From: an uncultured Bacteroidales bacterium
GTDB lineage: Bacteria > Bacteroidota > Bacteroidia > Bacteroidales > Dysgonomonadaceae
NCBI GenBank assembly: GCA_964293155.1
Contig: CAXYYA010000028.1
Span: 1-48,569 of the forward strand
Direction: 5' to 3'
DNA: 48,569 bases
Shown here: positions 1,373 to 13,153 of the stretch, in pieces
Numbering within the stretch: position 1 is the first letter of the stretch
Layout of the letters: every line of letters begins with the position of its first letter
The notes under the pieces: generated by a model
The model's input: the letters and a program-made list of their open reading frames with translations, nothing else
Told to the model about the DNA's origin: nothing
The model's database searches: none
Made by a program: the position numbers and the translations under genes

Positions 1373-4315
1373 ATGACAAAAAGTGAAAAACAAAATTTAT
1401 CACAGCTGCGGAAAGCAATCATAATTTTATTTTTATGCATGTTTTCTTTTGGTATGATGGCTCAGAGTCATACGGTTACCGGTACGGTGAAAGACAACAA
1501 AGGTGAGCCACTTATTGGTGTTACGGTTCAGGTTCAGGGAACTACAACAGGTACGGTTACGGATATTGACGGAAATTTCGCAATTCAAAATGTGAGGCCA
1601 AATGATAATTTGGAGTTTTCGTATGTGGGAATGAAATCGCAAGTTATTCCTGTTCAAGGCAAGACGAATATTCAGGTAACTTTATCGGATGATTCAGAGT
1701 TGCTGGACGAGGTGGTTGTTGTAGGTTATGGTACGCAAACAAGAAGGGAGATTACCGGATCGGTGGCGAATGTAACCGAAAAAGACTTTAATCAGGGTGT
1801 TACCCGTAATGCAGCTGATTTACTGCAAGGTAAAGTTGCAGGGTTGTCCATTACTTCTGCCAGTGGTGACCTAAACGATAACCCGATTATCAGACTCCGT
1901 GGTGTGAATACGTTACAGCGGGACAACGGCCCGTTCATCGTTATTGACGGAGTTCCCGGAGGAGACTTGTCTTCTGTGGCGCCTCAGGACATCGAATCAA
2001 TATCGGTATTGAAAGATGCATCTTCTGCAGCTATTTATGGATCGAGATCGGCCGGAGGTGTTATTCTCATCACCACAAAACGCGGATCGGGAAGCACACA
2101 ACGAATTTCGTACGATGGTTACCTGGCATTCTCGAATGCGGCGAACAAACCCGATATGTTGTCGGCGCAGGATTGGCGTGATTATGTGAACAAGAATAAT
2201 TTGCAAGAGCAAGCTAAAGCTTTTGACAGGTATAATGCCGATACCGATTGGTTCGGCGAAATTATGCGGACGGGAATTTCACACAACCACTCCTTATCGC
2301 TTTCAGGCGGCGGATCGGCTCACAATTACAGGGCTTCCGTAAACTACCGGAATATGGAAGGAATTATGAAAGACAATAGTTTCGAAAACATAAACTTCCG
2401 TTTCCAATTCAGTCAAAGGGCGATAAATAATAAATTGAGAGTAGGGTTAACAGGAGTTGCCAATATCCGGAACATATCTCCCAGTAATAAAACCAATACG
2501 ATGCTGGCATCCAATTTCCTGCCCGTTTATCCGGTTTATAATCCCGACGGTAGTTGGTTTGATTTAACGGAATGGAACCAAGGCAACCCATTGCGACAGA
2601 TCGCTGAAAATTACAGAGATATCAAAAATGTGGATTTCTATGGAAACGGCGATGTCGAGTTTAATTTTACGGAAGATTTGATTGGTAAATTAACGCTTTA
2701 CAAACAGCGCATGGGATTCGATTATGCGCAGTACGACAGTAGTGAGACCTATTCGGGAAGAGACCCGAAAGGATTTGCCAACCGCTCGGCTTTCACCAGA
2801 AATAAAGATTTGTTGGAATCAACATTAACCTACAATACCAGGTTGGGAGATGCTCACAAAATAACTCTTCTCGGAGGTTACTCGTGGGAGCAAAACGATT
2901 TTCAACGGGTTTATGCACAAAACAGGTTCTTTATTACCAATTTATTGGGAGCAAATGACTTGCAGTCGGGGCAAAATCTTTTGCCCGAAGATGTTGGATC
3001 GGAAAAGAACATGTTCCGTCTTATATCATTCTTCACCAGAGCTAATTATGCGTTTAAAGAACGCTACATGTTAACGGCTACATTGCGCTATGACGGATCT
3101 TCAAAATTCGGGCCGAATAACAAATGGGGTACTTTCCCATCAATTTCGGCTGCATGGGGAATTTCACAGGAAGAATTCATGAAAGACGTAAACTGGCTGG
3201 ATGATCTTAAATTGCGTGTTGGTTATGGAGTTACAGGCAACCAGGACGGACTTGATCCGTACAGAACGCTGGAACTTTATGGCCGGTACGGTTCGTATTA
3301 CGATTCGGGAAATTGGTACACCGCTTACAGAATTTCGCAGAATGCCAACCCCGACCTTAAATGGGAACAAACATCTTCCTTCAACATTGGTTTGGACTTT
3401 GTTCTGCTAAAAAACAGGTTGAGCGGAACGGTGGAGTGGTACAAAAAGAATACTTCGGACATGTTGTATGAATACACGGTACCAACGCCTCCTTTTTTGC
3501 ATGACAGAATTATGGCGAATGTTGGCGATATGTTGAACACAGGTATCGAGTTCGCTCTCACGGCCGGAATCATACAAACCAAGGACTTCGGCTGGACTAC
3601 ATCGTTCAACGGCGCATTCAACAGAAACAAAGTTACGAAACTTTCAAACGATTTATATTCAACCAATAGATTGTATGTGGGAGACGTTGGCGGAATTCGC
3701 GGTATGTCGGCCACCACTTCAACAATCATCGAAGAAGGTTACCCTGTAGGTCAGTTTTACATGTTGAAATGTGATGGAATTGATTCCAACGGAAAGTATA
3801 TCATAGAAGATATTGATAAAGATGGCACCATTTCCGATGCCGATCGTACGTATGTTGGAAATCCTCAACCCGATTTTGTTTTCGGTTGGCAAAACACGTT
3901 GAACTATAAGAATTGGGATTTATCGTTCTTTTTCAGAGGAACTTATGGGAATGATGTGTTGAATATCGGAAAAATAGCATACTCCAATTTGCAAAGTTTA
4001 ATCGGTGCAAATGTAAGAAAAGAAGCTATCGCAATAGGATTAAATCAAGCTCCCCAACTCTGCAGCTATTATGTTGAAGATGGTTCCCACATAAGGTTAG
4101 ACAACGCAACATTGGGATACACTTTCAATACTTCCAAACTGGGATGGCTCAATTCGGCAAGATTATACCTAACGGGTCAGAATTTGTTTGTTCTCACAAA
4201 ATACACAGGGCTTGATCCCGAAGTTCGTATGGATGGTGTCGACCCAGGGAAAGAGGAAAGGGAATTTTATCCGAAAGCAAGGACATTTACATTCGGAGTA
4301 AGCTTAAATTTCTAA
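1373..4315 (+). CDS. SusC/RagA-family TonB-dependent outer-membrane transporter
   Basis: 980 aa with an N-terminal signal and a carboxypeptidase-regulatory-like domain. A TonB plug (VVVGYGTQTRREITGSV, IESISVLKDASSAAIYGSRSAGGVILITTKRG) is followed by a large beta-barrel ending in the terminal SLNF. It is immediately followed by a SusD-like gene. Confidence 0.93.
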   Translation: MTKSEKQNLSQLRKAIIILFLCMFSFGMMAQSHTVTGTVKDNKGEPLIGVTVQVQGTTTGTVTDIDGNFAIQNVRPNDNLEFSYVGMKSQVIPVQGKTNIQVTLSDDSELLDEVVVVGYGTQTRREITGSVANVTEKDFNQGVTRNAADLLQGKVAGLSITSASGDLNDNPIIRLRGVNTLQRDNGPFIVIDGVPGGDLSSVAPQDIESISVLKDASSAAIYGSRSAGGVILITTKRGSGSTQRISYDGYLAFSNAANKPDMLSAQDWRDYVNKNNLQEQAKAFDRYNADTDWFGEIMRTGISHNHSLSLSGGGSAHNYRASVNYRNMEGIMKDNSFENINFRFQFSQRAINNKLRVGLTGVANIRNISPSNKTNTMLASNFLPVYPVYNPDGSWFDLTEWNQGNPLRQIAENYRDIKNVDFYGNGDVEFNFTEDLIGKLTLYKQRMGFDYAQYDSSETYSGRDPKGFANRSAFTRNKDLLESTLTYNTRLGDAHKITLLGGYSWEQNDFQRVYAQNRFFITNLLGANDLQSGQNLLPEDVGSEKNMFRLISFFTRANYAFKERYMLTATLRYDGSSKFGPNNKWGTFPSISAAWGISQEEFMKDVNWLDDLKLRVGYGVTGNQDGLDPYRTLELYGRYGSYYDSGNWYTAYRISQNANPDLKWEQTSSFNIGLDFVLLKNRLSGTVEWYKKNTSDMLYEYTVPTPPFLHDRIMANVGDMLNTGIEFALTAGIIQTKDFGWTTSFNGAFNRNKVTKLSNDLYSTNRLYVGDVGGIRGMSATTSTIIEEGYPVGQFYMLKCDGIDSNGKYIIEDIDKDGTISDADRTYVGNPQPDFVFGWQNTLNYKNWDLSFFFRGTYGNDVLNIGKIAYSNLQSLIGANVRKEAIAIGLNQAPQLCSYYVEDGSHIRLDNATLGYTFNTSKLGWLNSARLYLTGQNLFVLTKYTGLDPEVRMDGVDPGKEEREFYPKARTFTFGVSLNF

Positions 4316-4334
4316 CATTTTAATAATTACGATT

Positions 4335-5906
4335 ATGAAAAGAAAGTTTATATATATAATTAATATAGCAATTGCAGCACTGCTTTTTTCATGTACGAAT
4401 CTTAACGAAGATGTATATGATAAAATACCCGCAGACGAATTCGGAAACACTCAGGCTCAGATAAACTCCATTATTGCACCTATTTACAGGACACTGACAG
4501 GTCTGTGGCCCGGTGATGGTTTTGTTATTGCGGAAGAAGTTGGAGATATGGCCATTACACCGACAAGAACCGGTGGTGACTGGTGGGACGGCGGTATTCA
4601 CATGGAACTCGGACGTCACGTTTGGCAACCCCGAAACGGCGCGATTAACGGTTTGTGGAATACGGCAAGTAACGGCACGTCAACCTGTAATAAAATTATG
4701 GCCATTATTGAGGCAAACAAGTCGCTCGATGAAACTCAAAAACAGGCTGTGTATGCCGAGATCAGGGGCGTAAGGGCATTTTGGTATTATATTTTTCTGG
4801 ATTACTTTGGAAATGTACCTTTAGTAACGAGTTTCAATGATCAGGAGTTGCCTGCAACCAAGACCAGAAAAGAAGTATATGATTTTGTTGTAAGTGAGTT
4901 GAACGCGATAAAAGACCTGCTTCCCGCCGATGTTTCAGCCAAAACATACGGAAAGTTTACCAAAGGAGCCGCATATTTTCTGTTGGCGAAAATGTACCTC
5001 AATGCCGAGATATTTACCGGAACATTAACAGCTAACTCCTTTACAAAAGGAGCAGCCGAATGGCAAAAAACCATTGATGCCTGCGATGCGGTTTTGGACT
5101 TGCCTTATATCCTTGAACCAACATGGACACTGAATTTTGCCGTGAATAACGAAGCATCGAAAGAGATAATCTTCCCGTGTGTATTCACAAAGAAAGAATG
5201 GGGTAATTACATCCTTCACCGCACGTTGCATTACAAAGATCCCATCGCGTTGGGCATAAGTATCAGTCCTTGGAACGGTATTAGTGCAGTGCCGGATTAT
5301 GTAAACAGTTTCGATAACGCTGATAAGCGAAAAGCATGGTCGTTCCTTACCGGACCTATGATTGATCCGGCTACGGGTACCGTTTTATATACGCAGCACG
5401 GCAGGCCGTTGATTCACACCGTGGATATTCCCATGATCGCCGGAACAACGAGTAAATATGATGGTGTTTGGGGAGAAGTGGAACAAGAAGTCGGTGCAAG
5501 ATGTTTCAAATGGGCTATCGAACCCGGTATGTCGGCAACGTCTGAAAACGATTTTGCATTTTTCCGTTTAGCAGATGTTTATCTGATGAAAGCGGAAGCA
5601 TTGGCCAGACTGGGAAGAACAGCCGAAGCTTTGCCATTGGTTAACGCGGTAAGAACGCGTGCTTTTGATGATAAAACAAAATTATTGACTGCCGTAACGC
5701 TGAATGATATTTATAAAGAACGTCGTTTTGAGTTGGCGTGGGAGTGCTATACGCGTCAGGATATGATCCGTTTTGGAACGTTCACCGCTCCGCATTTTTT
5801 GAAACCGGAAGTAACGCCAATTTATCGCATCTTGTTACCGATACCTGTTCAGGCATTGGAGGCGAATAATAAACTGACACAGAATCCGGGATATCCTGGT
5901 TTATGA
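4335..5906 (+). CDS. SusD/RagB-family nutrient-binding outer-membrane lipoprotein
   Basis: 523 aa with a lipoprotein signal (MKRKFIYIINIAIAALLFSCTN). It is TPR-like helical and lies 19 bp downstream of the SusC-like gene, the canonical SusC/SusD pairing. Confidence 0.9.
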   Translation: MKRKFIYIINIAIAALLFSCTNLNEDVYDKIPADEFGNTQAQINSIIAPIYRTLTGLWPGDGFVIAEEVGDMAITPTRTGGDWWDGGIHMELGRHVWQPRNGAINGLWNTASNGTSTCNKIMAIIEANKSLDETQKQAVYAEIRGVRAFWYYIFLDYFGNVPLVTSFNDQELPATKTRKEVYDFVVSELNAIKDLLPADVSAKTYGKFTKGAAYFLLAKMYLNAEIFTGTLTANSFTKGAAEWQKTIDACDAVLDLPYILEPTWTLNFAVNNEASKEIIFPCVFTKKEWGNYILHRTLHYKDPIALGISISPWNGISAVPDYVNSFDNADKRKAWSFLTGPMIDPATGTVLYTQHGRPLIHTVDIPMIAGTTSKYDGVWGEVEQEVGARCFKWAIEPGMSATSENDFAFFRLADVYLMKAEALARLGRTAEALPLVNAVRTRAFDDKTKLLTAVTLNDIYKERRFELAWECYTRQDMIRFGTFTAPHFLKPEVTPIYRILLPIPVQALEANNKLTQNPGYPGL

Positions 5907-7639: not shown

Positions 7640-9310
7640 ATGACTATTCTTCCCGAAAAAATAGAAAATTATTCCGGCATCATCGCTTTTATGCTTAAGT
7701 ATCGTAACAGCCACGTTTTTAACACCGTTGTGGATAATGCCGCGGACTTAGACGATGACGAAAAAACCGAAAGCGATGATTCAGGAATAACTCCGCAGGA
7801 TTTTGCAAACGATCTTAAACAGATGGGCCCCGTGTATGTGAAGTTGGGACAACTCTTATCCACACGTCCCGATTTATTACCCGAAGAATATTTGGATGAA
7901 CTGGCAAATTTGCAGGACGATGTAGAACCCATTGGATATGGGAAGATTGAGCGGTTGATAGAAGAGGAATTGGGTGTAAGAATTTCCAAAGCTTTCAAGA
8001 CATTTGATCCGGCACCCTTAGCCAGCGCTTCCATCGGCCAGGTACACAGGGCGGAATTGCCATCGGGCAAAAAAGTGGCCGTTAAGGTGCAGCGTCCCGG
8101 TATCCGGAAACAGTTTACGGAAGAACTGGAAACCTTAAAAAACATGGTGGACATGGCCGTAAAATACACGAAAACAGCCGATAAATACGCGCTGGACGAT
8201 GTTCTGGATGAACTCAGCCACATGTTAATGAACGAGCTGGACTATAAAATGGAGGCTCAAAGTCTGGTTATTTTGGGACAAAATCTCAAAGAATACAAGC
8301 GTCTTATCGTTCCTCAGCCGGTGATGGATTATTGCACTCCAAAAATCTTAACGATGGATTATGTGGAAGGTAAGAAAGTTACAAAAGTATCGCCATTTAC
8401 CAAAACGGAAGTGGATTTCACTCCATTGATCGATGAGTTAGTTAAGTCCTATCTTCAACAAGTGGTTATTGACGGTTTTGCACACGCCGATCCGCATCCG
8501 GGTAATGTACATTTTACTCCTGACAATAAAATAGCGCTGATAGATTTGGGCATGGTAGCCAAATTTAGCAATACGTTGAAAGATCAAATGTTGCGTTTGC
8601 TCCTTGCCATGAGTGAAATGTCGGGCGATAAGATCGTGGATATTTTACTGGGAATGAGCACGTATGACGAGACTGCAATGATAAAAGATTTCAGGAAAGA
8701 TGTTAACAGATTAGTTCTGGATAATCAAATCAGTATCGCTAAAGATTTAAAAACAGGCCGACTGATTATTCAAATGAATCGGATGGCTGCCGAGCGAAAC
8801 ATAAAAATAGCCGTAGAACTAAATCTGCTCGGCAAAATATTGTTGAATATTGATCAGATTATTGCAACATTAACTCCCGATTATGATTTTCAGAAAGCTA
8901 TAAACGAAAATGCCGAACGGTTGATGACGCAGAAAATGACGCAGGAATTGAAACCTGAAAACATGTTTAAAATGCTGTTGGAAACCAAAAAATTGGGCGA
9001 AAATTTACCGGAACGTTTAAACAAAATTTCTCAACGTTTAGCGGACAACGAGTTTGAAATTAAAGTGAATGCGATTGACGAAAAACGTTTTACCGATGGT
9101 TTTCAGAAAGTGGCTAACCGAATTACTGTGGGGTTAATAATTGCGGCACTTATTCTTGCCGCTTCTATGCTCATGCGTATGCCCACAAGTTTTACCATTC
9201 TCGGATATCCCGGGTTACCCCTTATTTTCTTTTTAATTGCATCCGGAGCAGGGATTATGTTGGTTTATAATATCATATCGAAAGACGAATATTTCCGAAA
9301 AAGAAAATAG
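7640..9310 (+). CDS. ABC1/UbiB (ADCK) family atypical protein kinase with a C-terminal TM anchor
   Basis: 556 aa with a kinase-like lobe (VAVKVQRPG, HADPHPGNV, IALIDLGMV) and two C-terminal hydrophobic helices. Confidence 0.88.
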   Translation: MTILPEKIENYSGIIAFMLKYRNSHVFNTVVDNAADLDDDEKTESDDSGITPQDFANDLKQMGPVYVKLGQLLSTRPDLLPEEYLDELANLQDDVEPIGYGKIERLIEEELGVRISKAFKTFDPAPLASASIGQVHRAELPSGKKVAVKVQRPGIRKQFTEELETLKNMVDMAVKYTKTADKYALDDVLDELSHMLMNELDYKMEAQSLVILGQNLKEYKRLIVPQPVMDYCTPKILTMDYVEGKKVTKVSPFTKTEVDFTPLIDELVKSYLQQVVIDGFAHADPHPGNVHFTPDNKIALIDLGMVAKFSNTLKDQMLRLLLAMSEMSGDKIVDILLGMSTYDETAMIKDFRKDVNRLVLDNQISIAKDLKTGRLIIQMNRMAAERNIKIAVELNLLGKILLNIDQIIATLTPDYDFQKAINENAERLMTQKMTQELKPENMFKMLLETKKLGENLPERLNKISQRLADNEFEIKVNAIDEKRFTDGFQKVANRITVGLIIAALILAASMLMRMPTSFTILGYPGLPLIFFLIASGAGIMLVYNIISKDEYFRKRK

Positions 9311-9490
9311 CGGGAACATCATTTTAAAATTAACGTGAGTTCAATACAAGAAAAGGCTCTTAATTGATTTATAATAAGGTAATAAGGTCTTTGTTCTATT
9401 TTAATTTAACTCTACTAAGGTTGCTTTTAAAAAATAAGGTTTCCAATACGCTTTGAACCCTGCCTACCGCAGGCAAGCTTATTTACAAAT

Positions 9491-9839
9491 ATGATTATCC
9501 GCATAATGTCCTACATCAATTGCCACGTCCCTTTACAGGCTGTGTAAAAAACATCGCAACAGTATCAATTTGTCATTCCGACGATAGGAGGAATCTTATT
9601 TGTCATAAATTATAGACTCTTCACTCCGCAAAGCTGCGTTCAGAGTGACAAAAAGACACCTAATTTTCATTTTTACACAGCCTCTTTAGGGCGTGGTTTT
9701 TGAGATACAGAGCAGATAGGCTTTAGCCGAAATTTATACTATTATTGGGCTGAAGCCCGTAATTCTTAGACATTATTATCCCACGACTTAAAAATCGTGG
9801 CAATAGATAAAGCCGTTAGGACACTTTGCGGATAATCAT
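9491..9839. mobile_element. MITE-like element, family A (TIR ATGATTATCCGCAnARTGTCCTA...ATTGCCACG), copy 1, carrying a nested family-B insertion
   Basis: Terminal inverted repeats atgattatccgcataatgtcctacatcaattgccacg and cgtggcaatagataaagccgttaggacactttgcggataatcat. The internal gggctttagccgaaatttat...gggctgaagccc core is shared with the copies at 17755-17960 and 46226-46420 (the latter in reverse orientation). No ORF. Confidence 0.6.
9536..9684. mobile_element. MITE-like element, family B (~149 bp, TIR AGGCTGTGTAAAAA), copy 1, inserted inside family-A copy 1 with a TTTA target-site duplication
   Basis: caggctgtgtaaaaa...tttttacacagcctc, with an internal hairpin cactccgcaaagctgcgttcagagtg. 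It is flanked by direct TTTA/TTTA. The uninterrupted target, ccctaaaggg, is seen in the family-A copy at 46226-46420. Confidence 0.6.
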
Positions 9840-9984
9840 TTTTACGAATAATATAACCTTAATAGGAATCAACGCAAGCAAAGTTTCAGCCTTATTAGCT
9901 TATTTACTGATTCTTATGAAATGAGTTGTGTCAAACTCACGTTAATTATTTCTTTCGCATTTTACACGGATTAGAACCGATAAT

Positions 9985-11580
9985 TTAGCTACTGCACACC
10001 TGCAAAGCGGCCGGAACAATATCAATGGTTACGGGAGTTGTGCCGCTGATCTCACCGTCAATTACCAGTTTCTGCGTCGGGTGTGTATCTAACTCCACGT
10101 GTTTCCCCTGAAAATGCTTCACGAATTCGCTACCTTCGGTAGGTTTGTCTTTGAGCAACTGCACCAATGTTTCGGCGGCATTTGCTTCGTTTTCCACGTT
10201 CACGATTACCGTCACGTCCAGCAGCCCGTCGTCCGGTAACGGTTCAGAACCTCCCTGTGCAAAAATGGATGTTTTAGGTGCAGTGTTTGCGATTGTTACG
10301 CTTCCGGTTTGAAACGTGTAGGTTTGATCATCAACTTTTAACGTTGCTTCAAAAATATCTTCTTTTTTAATGTGTTTTATTCCTCCGAGAATGTATCCGA
10401 AAGCGCCCCATTCGTCTTTTAAGCCGTCTTCGGCTTCTTCGGTCATTCCGCGCTCCAAACCTGCGCCTGCAAGCAAAACCATGTAAGAGTCGTTTATTTT
10501 CGCTATATCAATTTTGCGCGTTTTTCCCGAAGTGATCACGGCGCACGCCGTTTCAATGGGTTTCAACCGGATGCCATCGCCGTACAACATGGAAGCCAGG
10601 GCGTTGCTCGTCCCGAACGGAATTATTCCCATTACTGCGTCGGTATTTACCAAGGCTTGAGCCACCTGTGTTACGGTACCGTCGCCTCCGGCGGCAACCA
10701 CAAATTGCTTCCCTTCATTCACCAATTGTTGGGCAATGTCTTTAGCCTGATTTTGCTCTGTAGCTTCATGGAACGTGAGTTCGAAAAAGCTTTTCAACAG
10801 TTCGTTGACTTTATCCAGTTTTTCTTCTTTGGCTGTTCCTGCTGCTGCATTATAGATGATATGCAGTTCATCGGATTTCTTTTCCATGGATATCCCGAAG
10901 CTGTTCAGACTGGCGAATTGTCGTGTATTCGGCTTAACGTTCGGCCTGACTTTCCGGACTTCGTCAATCAAATCCTGATACGAACGCGACGGGTCCAGAA
11001 ATTTGAGATACGCCAAAAGTACGGTCACCGACCGACCTTGTCCCAATGCGCAGTGGATCAAAACTTCTTTTCCGTCTTTTCGTTGCTGATCAATCCATCT
11101 GACAGCCATTTCCAATTGGTTTTTCCGGGGACTATTGTGATCCATTACCGGGATGTTCAGATATTCTACATCACGTCCTAAAAATTGTGTTTCAATGGCA
11201 TCGAATTCAGCCGTAACGTCCAGTATGGCATTGATAGGACTCTCTTTGAGCGATTTCAGATCGGTGAACACCAACCGTCTGCTCAACCATAATCCGTCAC
11301 GGATTTCCTGCAATGGTGGCACATTGTCTCTTGATCGGGCGATCAGATTAAAAATGGTGGCGCCCAGCAAAACCGGAAATATGGCAATTTTTATGTAAAA
11401 CGGTAGTCGCCCGCCCTTGCTTTTAAAAAGCATTTCGCCGAAGTCGGCGAAATAAGCGATCGCGTAATAAAGCGATGAGAGCGATATCCAGATTAAAATG
11501 ATCTGTAGGATAAGAGGAGTGAAAAAACTAAGTACGGCAACAAGTACCGAAAAAATCAGGTAGATGTATCCTCTGTTCAT
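9985..11580 (-). CDS. Membrane-anchored fusion: dual-specificity/tyrosine phosphatase domain (HCxxGxxRS) plus diacylglycerol-kinase-like lipid kinase (DAGK_cat, GGDGT)
   Basis: 531 aa. It has ~3 N-terminal TM helices, the P-loop HCALGQGRSVTV, then IIYNAAAG...VVAAGGDGTV...IIPFGTSNALA (YegS/BmrU/sphingosine-kinase-like catalytic domain) plus an accessory domain. Confidence 0.8.
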   Translation of the reverse strand: MNRGYIYLIFSVLVAVLSFFTPLILQIILIWISLSSLYYAIAYFADFGEMLFKSKGGRLPFYIKIAIFPVLLGATIFNLIARSRDNVPPLQEIRDGLWLSRRLVFTDLKSLKESPINAILDVTAEFDAIETQFLGRDVEYLNIPVMDHNSPRKNQLEMAVRWIDQQRKDGKEVLIHCALGQGRSVTVLLAYLKFLDPSRSYQDLIDEVRKVRPNVKPNTRQFASLNSFGISMEKKSDELHIIYNAAAGTAKEEKLDKVNELLKSFFELTFHEATEQNQAKDIAQQLVNEGKQFVVAAGGDGTVTQVAQALVNTDAVMGIIPFGTSNALASMLYGDGIRLKPIETACAVITSGKTRKIDIAKINDSYMVLLAGAGLERGMTEEAEDGLKDEWGAFGYILGGIKHIKKEDIFEATLKVDDQTYTFQTGSVTIANTAPKTSIFAQGGSEPLPDDGLLDVTVIVNVENEANAAETLVQLLKDKPTEGSEFVKHFQGKHVELDTHPTQKLVIDGEISGTTPVTIDIVPAALQVCSS

Positions 11581-11761: not shown

Positions 11762-13153
11762 TTACAACAGATTACTTGCCAGTTCAGAAAGCTCGCTCCG
11801 TTCACCTTTCACGAGGTTTACGTGCGCGAAAATATTTTGTCCCTTCATCTTATCAATCATATACGCAAGGCCGTTGGATTGCGAATCGAGGTAAGGTTGG
11901 TCAATTTGTTGCAGGTCGCCCGTGAACACCATTTTTGTGCCTTCGCCTGCGCGGGTGATAATGGTTTTCACTTCGTGAGGGGTGAGGTTCTGAGCTTCGT
12001 CTATAATGCAAAACGTTTCCGTGAGGCTACGGCCGCGGATGTAAGCCAAGGCTTCGATTTCCAGTTGTCCCGATTTTTGCATTTCTTCAATTACGCGCAA
12101 ATCGCCGCTGTTGGTTCCAAGTTGCGATTTGATCACGTTCAGGTTATCGAAAAGCGGTTGCATGTAAGGCGCGATTTTCTGTTTTTCGTCGCCGGGCAGG
12201 AATCCCAGGTCTTTGTTGGACAATGATACAATGGGGCGCGCAAGCAGTATCTGATGATACAGTTTGTTTTGTTTGAGCGCCGATGCCAGCGCCAAAAGGG
12301 TTTTTCCGGTTCCGGCTTTTCCGGTGAGCCCCACGAGTTTCACTTCGGGATCGTTCAACACCTTAAAAGCAAAAGCTTGTTCGGCGTTTCGCGGATGGAT
12401 GCCGAAATTGTTGTCTTTATCAACCTTTTCAACCGTTTTGGTGAACGGATTGTAGCGTGCCAATACGCTGTTGCGGTCGCTTTTAAGTATAAAACACTGG
12501 TTTGGCGCAATTTCCGTTTGAAAATTGAATTCGTCGAAATCCACCCCTTTTTGCTGTGCATAGATCTGATCAATCAAATCGGGATTCACACCCTCAATAA
12601 CGAGCTCTTCCTGTTCAAATATGTCAATGTTGGTAACTTTGTCAGTGATATAATCTTCGGCCAGCAATCCGAGCGAGCGCGCTTTCATGCGCAGGTTAAT
12701 ATCTTTGGATACTAAAATGGCTTTGGTTTTCGGATATTTTTCCGTGATGCTTTGCAAGGTGGACAGTATGCGATTATCAGGGACTCTTTCGGGGAAAGCT
12801 TGCGTAATTTTCGGATTATCAGGAATATTAACAATGTATAATTTTCCGCGTCCGACACCGAGTTCGGCTCCGTTGGTAAACAGATCATCGTCTGTTATCA
12901 GGTCCAGTTCCCGCACAAATGCGCGAGCATTAAAATTTATTTGTTCGTTGCCTTTTTTAAATTTATCCAATTCTTCCAATACCACAAAAGGAATATAAAC
13001 ATCGTTCTCTTCAAAATTATCCAAACACTTGTAGTCGTGCAGGATAACGTTGGTGTCGAGAATGAAATTCTTTTTGGGATTCCGTGAAGTTGATTTAGTC
13101 TTTACGGTTGACTTTTCGGTTGTAGCTTTCGTAGTCTTACCAGTTGTTGCCAT
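11762..13153 (-). CDS. PhoH-like ATPase with an N-terminal PIN domain (YlaK-type)
   Basis: 463 aa with a PIN signature (ILDTNVILHDYKCL...VVLEELD), then Walker A (GLTGKAGTGKTLLALA) and a PhoH core. Confidence 0.9.
   Translation of the reverse strand: MATTGKTTKATTEKSTVKTKSTSRNPKKNFILDTNVILHDYKCLDNFEENDVYIPFVVLEELDKFKKGNEQINFNARAFVRELDLITDDDLFTNGAELGVGRGKLYIVNIPDNPKITQAFPERVPDNRILSTLQSITEKYPKTKAILVSKDINLRMKARSLGLLAEDYITDKVTNIDIFEQEELVIEGVNPDLIDQIYAQQKGVDFDEFNFQTEIAPNQCFILKSDRNSVLARYNPFTKTVEKVDKDNNFGIHPRNAEQAFAFKVLNDPEVKLVGLTGKAGTGKTLLALASALKQNKLYHQILLARPIVSLSNKDLGFLPGDEKQKIAPYMQPLFDNLNVIKSQLGTNSGDLRVIEEMQKSGQLEIEALAYIRGRSLTETFCIIDEAQNLTPHEVKTIITRAGEGTKMVFTGDLQQIDQPYLDSQSNGLAYMIDKMKGQNIFAHVNLVKGERSELSELASNLL

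Follow-up and report, generated by a model that had tools for sequence, protein, structure and literature searches.

A predicted membrane-anchored protein of the PRK12361 family combining a Cys-based phosphatase with a DgkB-type lipid kinase in a Bacteroidales genome

Bacterial lipid kinases of the DgkB/BmrU/YegS/Rv2252 type are soluble proteins of about 300 amino acids (aa), which reach the membrane by means of amphipathic helices or a partner protein. The physiological role of DgkB is the recycling of diacylglycerol (DAG) to phosphatidylglycerol (PG); being soluble, DgkB depends on the membrane protein GdpS for access to DAG (PMC11962490). The substrates in this superfamily differ between members and include DAG, PG, ceramide and sphingoid bases. 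Among proteins with the dual-specificity phosphatase (DSP) fold, PTPMT1 and its ortholog from Rhodopirellula baltica are membrane-anchored phosphatases of phosphatidylglycerophosphate (PGP), and enzymes of this type have been described as having basic residues in the CX5R loop (PMC3576122). Here, we describe a gene that joins representatives of both superfamilies in one polypeptide. It was found in a stretch of 48,569 nucleotides (the whole of which is called the window below) from contig CAXYYA010000028.1 of an uncultured Bacteroidales bacterium of the Dysgonomonadaceae (assembly GCA_964293155.1). According to the ORF listing, the gene is a complete open reading frame (ORF) with an ATG start at positions 9985..11580 of the minus strand and encodes 531 aa; a full-length match to NF009025 assigns the product to the PRK12361 family.

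Based on the results presented below, we suggest that this protein is a bifunctional lipid enzyme of the inner membrane, in which the kinase would convert DAG to phosphatidate (PA) and the phosphatase would act on a head-group phosphate, e.g., that of PGP, with both domains in the cytoplasm (probability about 0.4). The following scheme is proposed. The N-terminal helices and the DSP domain, which together are referred to as the TM-DSP (transmembrane-DSP) module, would hold the protein in the bilayer, and both catalytic domains would lie on the cytoplasmic side of the inner membrane. With ATP as the donor, the DgkB/YegS/BmrU-type kinase would add a phosphate to the free hydroxyl group of a lipid in the membrane; this lipid is most probably sn-1,2-diacylglycerol, and the product would be phosphatidate. 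The TM-DSP module would hydrolyze a phosphomonoester in a lipid head group, most probably that of a phosphatidyl-alcohol phosphate such as PGP. One polypeptide would then carry out the first and last steps of a salvage route (DAG to PA, CDP-DAG, PGP and PG), and its built-in anchor would stand in for the separate membrane recruiter needed by soluble DgkB. That both domains act on membrane lipids seems probable to us; the particular pairing of DAG for the kinase with PGP for the phosphatase is offered tentatively. The results show the architecture, the intact and invariant catalytic motifs, purifying selection, the kinase subfamily, the modularity of TM-DSP and its repeated association with glycerophospholipid enzymes, whereas we infer that the domains face the cytoplasm, that the phosphatase acts on a lipid and, above all, which two substrates are used.

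The order of the parts, as given by Pfam, hydropathy and an AlphaFold2 model, is hydrophobic helices, DSPc, DAGK_cat and YegS_C. The initial annotation of the gene had read it as a phosphatase and a DAG-kinase-like kinase in a single polypeptide behind three hydrophobic helices, and this description is borne out; judging by the residues retained, both halves are apparently active. In the domain search that it proposed, DSPc, DAGK_cat and YegS_C all scored far above their cut-offs. The NCBIfam equivalog NF009025 (PRK12361, named "hypothetical protein") matched at 526.2 bits against a cut-off of 505, residues 3-529 corresponding to model positions 6-538 of 546. The AlphaFold2 model of the 531-aa protein, built on 29 homologs, had a mean predicted local distance difference test (pLDDT) value of 85.6 and a predicted TM-score (pTM) of 0.81. 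Conservation of motifs was read from an alignment of 29 orthologs that are 34-79% identical to the query. All three Pfam domains were present in 29 of the 29 aligned homologs, and the beginning MNRGYIYLIFS is common to the orthologs and the window protein. The catalytic Cys and the GGDGT motif, whose conservation the initial annotation had singled out for checking, are both invariant in these orthologs.

With respect to the closest ortholog (91% identical, from the Bacteroidales metagenome-assembled genome (MAG) UBA1035), the ratio of nonsynonymous to synonymous substitution rates (dN/dS) was about 0.03; when the membrane part, the phosphatase and the kinase were taken separately, it was comparably low in each. 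Since the ratio is low in all three segments, the sequence comparison indicates a functional gene, each part of which is under purifying selection. The GC content of the gene, considered as a possible trace of horizontal transfer, is 46.3% and thus near that of the window (44.0%).

The kinase half opens with the DAGK_cat nucleotide-binding domain (aa 239-362; 10495..10866, minus strand, as for all parts of the gene), which was detected by Pfam at 88.1 bits (cut-off 23.6; E 4e-25) and aligns to DgkB (2qv7) and BmrU (3t5p). The YegS_C (PF19279) beta-sandwich, the substrate domain (aa 384-529; 9994..10431), follows with 52.8 bits (E 5e-14). The GGDGT motif (aa 298-302; 10675..10689) aligned to GGDGT of DgkB, and GIIPFGTSN (aa 318-326; 10603..10629) to GVIPMGTVN. 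The segment D508-G509-E510 (10051..10059) aligned to VDGE of DgkB and is the equivalent of its DGE, the presumed catalytic base. Residues G298-T302, G318, P321, G323, T324, N326, D508 and G509 were invariant in the 29 orthologs, and E510 was kept in at least 90% of them.

By sequence, the closest solved relatives of the kinase are DgkB (2qv7), BmrU (3t5p) and other "DAG kinase" structures (E about 1e-16), followed by YegS. Foldseek gave TM-scores of 0.82-0.85 with 20-24% identity for BmrU/DgkB and 0.76-0.80 for YegS. Sphingosine kinase 1 (SphK1) scored below DgkB, BmrU and YegS (about 0.70, 14% identity), and NAD kinases did not exceed 0.59. The TIGR00147 model (YegS/Rv2252/BmrU) reached 113.7 bits, just under its cut-off of 118.65, and the best kinase subfamily model, PRK00861 ("putative lipid kinase"), reached 272.6 bits against 293. 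The kinase half is thus a lipid kinase of the DgkB/YegS/BmrU group, of which, with both scores below the cut-offs, it is a divergent branch. In agreement with the initial annotation, Pfam, NCBIfam and Foldseek all place it in the DAG/sphingosine/YegS lipid-kinase superfamily. An identity as NAD kinase was rejected, given 23.0 bits for NAD_kinase against a cut-off of 25.5, no match to the NAD-kinase C-terminal domain among the Pfam hits, and the TM-scores of at most 0.59 mentioned above. The protein thus has in common with DgkB, BmrU, YegS and Rv2252 the two-domain kinase fold (TM-score 0.76-0.85) and the GGDGT, GxxPxGTxN and DGE motifs, and ATP-dependent phosphorylation of a lipid would be expected. 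Unlike in these soluble enzymes, the kinase here shares its polypeptide chain with a phosphatase module embedded in the membrane.

The Cys-based DSP domain (aa 89-235; 10876..11316) was delimited by Pfam DSPc, a PDB sequence match and Foldseek. DSPc covers residues 108-228 at 67.8 bits, above the gathering cut-off of 33.5 (E 1e-18); the P-loop has the form HCX5R(S/T), and an Asp residue lies about 30 residues upstream of it. The P-loop HCALGQGRS (aa 176-184; 11029..11055), located by motif position and alignment, contains the catalytic residues Cys177 and Arg183. H176, C177, A178, L179, G180, G182, R183 and S184 were invariant in the 29 orthologs; the variable position of the consensus H-C-A-L-G-x-G-R-S is Gln in the window protein, Arg in most Gammaproteobacteria and Lys in a few. 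D147, which the alignment places in a PVxDH loop (11140..11142), was likewise invariant, also in the stand-alone and PAP2-fused relatives described below, and by analogy with the DSP family it is presumed to be the general acid. The best PDB sequence match of the domain was the archaeal Tk-PTP (5z5b, E 3e-13), and comparison of the model with 5z5a in Foldseek gave a TM-score of 0.85 and an rmsd of 2.4.

The best DSP matches (Tk-PTP 5z5a/5z5b, SsoPTP and the eukaryotic MKPs and atypical DUSPs) share the CX5R and Asp apparatus with the window protein, but they are soluble protein phosphatases having neither a membrane module nor lipid-enzyme partners. With PTPMT1 and its Rhodopirellula ortholog, the window protein shares the Cys-based DSP fold and an N-terminal hydrophobic anchor; a phosphomonoester in a lipid head group as the substrate is a proposal of ours. 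It differs from PTPMT1 in that its P-loop is not rich in basic residues, its conserved membrane unit has three helices where PTPMT1 has one anchor, a kinase is fused to it, and it is not close in sequence. Homology to the Bacteroides PIP-DAG phosphatase BT_1525 was also considered and rejected, as BT_1525 is of the PgpA type and not of the DSP type (PMC9246714).

Kyte-Doolittle hydropathy revealed hydrophobic stretches at about 2-45 and 59-83, and the AlphaFold2 model has helices at 3-18, 23-44 and 61-84, followed by two globular domains. Helix 1 (aa 3-18; 11527..11574) and helix 2 (aa 23-44; 11449..11514), the latter with invariant W31 and Y43, are followed by a conserved basic loop (aa 45-60; 11401..11448), which has the signature F-[KR]-K...G-x-[LI]-P with invariant K53, G57 and P60. 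Helix 3 (aa 61-84; 11329..11400) is kinked at invariant P69/G73, being modelled as two helices (61-66 and 68-84), and it may be re-entrant instead of membrane-spanning. In total, Y7, W31, Y43, K53, G57, P60, P69 and G73 of the membrane part were invariant in the 29 orthologs. An ATP-dependent kinase would have to lie in the cytoplasm. Two topologies would give this result, namely three transmembrane helices with the N-terminus outside, or two transmembrane helices with a re-entrant third one. We consider the latter more parsimonious, since PAP2 domains, to which the module is fused in some relatives, normally end inside the cell.

A terminator scan picked up a perfect hairpin with a 10-bp stem and a T-rich run (TATTTCGCCGACTTCGGCGAAATG CTTTTTAAAA) within the ORF, at 11431-11454 on the minus strand. 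It covers codons ~43-54, i.e., the conserved YFADFGEMLFK loop, and is probably a chance product of the coding sequence.

The relatives of the membrane and phosphatase parts bear on the nature of the phosphatase substrate. When 1.84 billion cluster representatives were searched exhaustively by HMMER with query residues 1-235, about 46 of the 56 best representatives were full-length kinase fusions. Below them, there were many stand-alone proteins of 225-260 aa aligning to query residues 5-228, helices included, as well as proteins of 420-480 aa with the TM-DSP unit at the C-terminus and, at the N-terminus, a membrane domain of the PAP2 superfamily of lipid phosphatases/phosphotransferases. One of the latter (P0225) matched PAP2_3 at 40 bits against a cut-off of 27, and other members gave weaker matches to PAP2, PAP2_3 or PAP2_C. 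The PAP2_3 and PAP2_C sub-families include inositol-phosphorylceramide and sphingomyelin synthases. In an alignment of 17 sequences, Y43, G57 and P69 were invariant across the kinase-fused, stand-alone and PAP2-fused forms, and the three architectures also shared W31 and the membrane signatures F-[RK]-K...G-x-[LI]-P and P-x-L-L. The two forms that lack the kinase matched positions ~5-240 of the PRK12361 model at 105-177 bits. Helices and DSP, which recur together alone, fused to the kinase and fused to PAP2, thus form one conserved module, and the evolutionary unit is a membrane-embedded TM-DSP that recombines with different lipid enzymes. A 416-aa protein (P0250) of the chlorarachniophyte alga Amorphochlora amoebiformis matched query residues 74-224, i.e., the C-terminal end of helix 3 and the DSP domain, and so DSP relatives of the module are also found in a eukaryote.

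The PAP2-fused proteins are encoded in recurrent gene clusters. In seven of seven loci, the PAP2-TM-DSP gene directly follows, on the same strand and often with a 4-bp overlap, a gene for Hydrolase_4 and Methyltransf_20; the Hydrolase_4 protein is closest to lysophospholipase L2, and Methyltransf_20 is either fused to it or follows it. Besides Zooshikella and a Tepidisphaeraceae MAG, the seven lineages comprise five metagenomic contigs, and the loci extend over L081 4235-7404, L088 1284-8181, L090 4921-8056, L091 4425-8410, L092 1294-4403, L093 4968-9806 and L095 5144-8347. This pair is seen in Gammaproteobacteria, Planctomycetota and several metagenomic lineages. Adjacent to PAP2-TM-DSP, a PlsC-type acyltransferase is encoded in 3/7 lineages and CdsA in 2/7. 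The Tepidisphaeraceae cluster also includes a PgsA-like CDP-alcohol phosphatidyltransferase, scoring 98.8 bits against a cut-off of 109.1. The cluster looks like an apparently uncharacterised operon for the remodelling of lipid head groups. The PAP2-TM-DSP proteins WP_051310999.1 (Zooshikella ganghwensis) and HEY8669038.1 (Tepidisphaeraceae MAG) share Y43, G57, P69, D147 and HCALGxxR[ST] with the window protein; they differ from it in their N-terminal PAP2 partner and in their conserved clusters (Hydrolase_4/Methyltransf_20, PlsC, CdsA), whereas the kinase fusion stands alone.

These fusions and operon associations place the TM-DSP module in glycerophospholipid metabolism. As the module is fused to PAP2 and set in phospholipid-synthesis clusters, a lipid substrate for the phosphatase gains independent support. 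It may even be that helices and DSP together make up a class of Cys-based lipid phosphatases integral to bacterial membranes, widespread but not recognised before, a counterpart of PTPMT1 that would supply PGP- or PIP-type (phosphatidylinositol phosphate) phosphatase activity where PgpA/B/C are missing, and that would have been recruited by fusion at least twice, i.e., to a DgkB-type kinase and to PAP2 in a lipid-remodelling operon. In this extended form, we hold the idea to be rather doubtful.

A number of points weigh against a bifunctional lipid enzyme acting on DAG and a head-group phosphate. The DSP domain is nearest in sequence to protein phosphatases (archaeal Tk-PTP, MKPs and atypical DUSPs), and, taken alone, these relatives suggest a protein phosphatase. 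No chain named PTPMT1 was among the best 60 PDB matches of the domain, the presence of PTPMT1 in the searched copy being unconfirmed. The P-loop holds at most one basic residue, and the window protein has Gln at that position. The association with CdsA and the PgsA-like enzyme is limited to the PAP2-fused relatives in a few lineages and does not extend to the kinase fusion; moreover, the PAP2 domain of these proteins could itself be the lipid phosphatase. The genes for stand-alone TM-DSP proteins have heterogeneous neighbourhoods. The specificity of the kinase is not readable from the sequence, because members of the superfamily use substrates as different as DAG, PG, ceramide and sphingoid bases. 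Finally, if the protein had three true transmembrane helices and its N-terminus inside, its domains would be periplasmic.

Five rival explanations were weighed as well. It is conceivable that the kinase and the phosphatase oppose each other on one lipid pair (DAG and PA or another), being reciprocally regulated like PFK-2/FBPase-2, and so set the DAG:PA ratio, e.g., during membrane remodelling in marine bacteria. The fusion of both activities with the catalytic residues of both kept is in line with this, and the carriers are mainly marine heterotrophs, bacteria in which DAG-based non-phosphorus lipids replace phospholipids under phosphorus stress. However, we know of no PA phosphatase with the DSP fold, no regulatory domain or conserved regulator gene was found, and Pho-box-like sites upstream of 66 gammaproteobacterial orthologs were no better than random controls. 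Furthermore, some relatives combine TM-DSP with a PAP2 domain, and in these a further PA phosphatase would be superfluous; we regard such a switch as unlikely. The cycle of phosphorylation and dephosphorylation on a single lipid, which the initial annotation had favoured, is one of several possibilities, and nothing in the results shows it. A DSP domain that does not act on lipids is less likely still. The kinase alone would then be a lipid enzyme, and the DSP domain would be a phosphatase of phosphotyrosine, phosphoserine or phosphothreonine or a regulatory or scaffold unit that anchors and controls the kinase. The nearest relatives of the DSP domain in sequence and structure are indeed protein phosphatases, and GdpS serves DgkB purely as a recruiter, its own catalytic residues not being needed (PMC11962490). 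On the other side, Cys, Arg and Asp are invariant in the 29 orthologs as well as in the stand-alone and PAP2-fused forms, which implies that catalysis is selected, and the partners that recur with TM-DSP are lipid enzymes, not protein kinases.

The Bacteroidales host raises the question of sphingolipids, in which case the kinase would act on dihydrosphingosine or dihydroceramide and the phosphatase on the matching 1-phosphate. The host is probably a Petrimonas-like member of the order, and SphK1 is a clear structural relative of the kinase, although its fold match (about 0.70, 14%) is weaker than that of DgkB/BmrU (0.82-0.85, 20-24%). To our knowledge, Alteromonadales, other marine Gammaproteobacteria and Verrucomicrobiota, on which the PRK12361 family is centred among the matches listed, are not sphingolipid producers, while in Bacteroidota the family is rare; in addition, no sphingolipid gene was found near the target gene. 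In Porphyromonas gingivalis, the stand-alone kinase PG1348 (dhSphK1) phosphorylates dihydrosphingosine, and the mutant retains residual activity of unknown origin (PMC9045371). PG1348, from a Bacteroidales species, and the ceramide kinase CpgB of Caulobacter belong to the same GGDG lipid-kinase superfamily as the window protein; unlike it, they are stand-alone kinases in sphingolipid producers, a comparison drawn from published descriptions. Overall, a role in sphingolipid metabolism is improbable.

Even less probable is the recycling of polyprenyl carriers at the cytoplasmic face, by which the kinase would convert undecaprenol and the phosphatase undecaprenyl diphosphate (C55-PP) to undecaprenyl phosphate. 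Both reactions would yield one product, and the fusion would make sense. The PAP2 partners belong to a superfamily that, according to a report on LpxE (PMC6581854), includes C55-PP phosphatases. The target gene is not associated with genes for the cell wall or for polysaccharides, however, and the clusters of the relatives (PlsC, CdsA and PgsA-like) point to the synthesis of glycerophospholipids. The undecaprenol kinases known to us belong, besides, to the unrelated DgkA family. The reasoning of the initial annotation, which had derived sphingolipid or isoprenoid substrates from a Bacteroidetes context, is weakened, the family being mainly gammaproteobacterial and verrucomicrobial and the kinase structurally closer to DgkB/BmrU than to SphK1. 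We give hardly any credence to a nucleotide enzyme, in which an NAD-kinase-like domain and the DSP domain would act on NAD(P) or a related nucleotide. It is suggested by weak matches to PF22741, "DSP-PTPase fused to NAD+ kinase" (19.4 bits; 13/29 orthologs at E<=1e-3), and to NAD_kinase (23 bits), but both fall below their cut-offs (27 and 25.5), whereas DAGK_cat and YegS_C reach 88 and 53 bits. NAD kinases also remain at TM-scores of at most 0.59, vs. 0.82-0.85 for DgkB/BmrU, and the conserved membrane module would have no obvious role with a soluble substrate.

At E<=1e-10, a collection of 5.8 billion proteins contained 518 matches; the best 120 of these share the Pfam domain set of the window protein and are nearly all of about 540 aa, and where a name is given, it reads "diacylglycerol kinase family protein" or "dual specificity protein phosphatase family protein". 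With one genome scanned for each GTDB species, relatives were seen in at least 352 species. Among the matches listed, the carriers were mostly Alteromonas, Pseudoalteromonas, Shewanella, Colwellia, Idiomarina, Rheinheimera, Psychromonas and Marinomonas, and further Verrucomicrobiota (Opitutales/Puniceicoccales), one Desulforhopalus and a handful of Bacteroidia and Cytophagales MAGs. The 90%-identity cluster of the window protein includes a GenBank protein of a Petrimonas sp. MAG. With NF009025/PRK12361 (in GenBank, "diacylglycerol kinase family protein"), the window protein shares the same full-length architecture, with nothing different. Thus, the architecture is already catalogued and widespread, and the window gene is a new member of a catalogued family that has no assigned function. 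Literature searches on the family, the domain combinations and the annotation names found no paper describing or testing the TM-DSP-lipid kinase architecture, and no characterised bacterial lipid kinase having it was found. The view of the initial annotation that the architecture lies outside the well-characterised lipid kinases holds in this sense, but the architecture itself is catalogued (NF009025) and occurs in many species.

Both halves of the protein come from well-known superfamilies. What appears new with respect to characterised systems is a DgkB-type lipid kinase with a covalently attached, membrane-embedded Cys-phosphatase; what this analysis adds is that TM-DSP is a mobile module with ties to genes of phospholipid synthesis. 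No bacterial lipid kinase characterised so far is known to be joined covalently to a phosphatase, and for DSP modules embedded in bacterial membranes in the manner of TM-DSP, no substrate is known. Should lipid head groups prove to be the target of the phosphatase, it would represent a new enzyme class in bacterial phospholipid metabolism and could fill gaps where a PGP- or PIP-type phosphatase is unidentified. Covalent anchoring, if true, would be a second way of bringing DgkB-type kinases, which are soluble, to diacylglycerol. If the protein is an ordinary DAG kinase with a regulatory phosphatase, its significance is modest. Hundreds of species carry a member of the PRK12361 family, and many of these can be cultured and are open to genetic work (Shewanella, Alteromonas and Pseudoalteromonas).

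The genomic neighbourhood of the kinase fusion was compared by clustering the ORFs of 80 loci and the window. No neighbour family was common to more than 25 loci, so there is no conserved operon partner, as expected of a self-contained fusion. The sharing of neighbours follows taxonomy, and synteny is found only among close relatives, with PhoH-PIN and the histidyl-tRNA synthetase HisRS in Bacteroidales and different genes in Alteromonas or Shewanella. When the two neighbours on either side in 27 loci (about one per genus) were surveyed with Pfam, nothing recurrent appeared (short-chain dehydrogenases/reductases, 4/81; sigma-54 activators, 3; phospholipase A1, 2).

In the window, a gene for a 463-aa fusion of PIN_4 and PhoH, a putative RNA helicase/RNase of the PhoH2 type, lies 181 bp upstream of the target gene on the same strand (11762-13153, minus strand). 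This linkage is kept in loci L002 and L003 and is missing in L001 and L004, because of which a functional tie to the target gene is unlikely. Further neighbours encode a lipocalin-like lipoprotein, an M3 peptidase and HisRS. On the other side, a convergent gene (7640-9310, plus strand) encodes a UbiB/ABC1 atypical kinase-like protein of 556 aa with a hydrophobic C-terminal tail. The ABC1/UbiB family has been linked to the handling of membrane isoprenoid lipids. A gene of this family is convergent with the target in the window and in L002 and lies ~6 kb away in the Desulforhopalus locus L031; as this proximity is seen in only 3 of the 81 loci, it is probably a coincidence.

Between the UbiB/ABC1 gene and the target, there is a 675-bp AT-rich gap (9311-9984; 35% GC) with no ORF of 60 aa or more, which is unusually long for a convergent intergenic region. 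It gave no Rfam match above noise, no tRNA-like element and no gene or protein remnant, and it was not conserved in related Bacteroidia loci. At 1373-5906 on the plus strand, the window also contains a pair of genes for a SusC-like TonB-dependent receptor and a SusD-family protein, the core of a polysaccharide-utilisation locus, which fits a Bacteroidota host.

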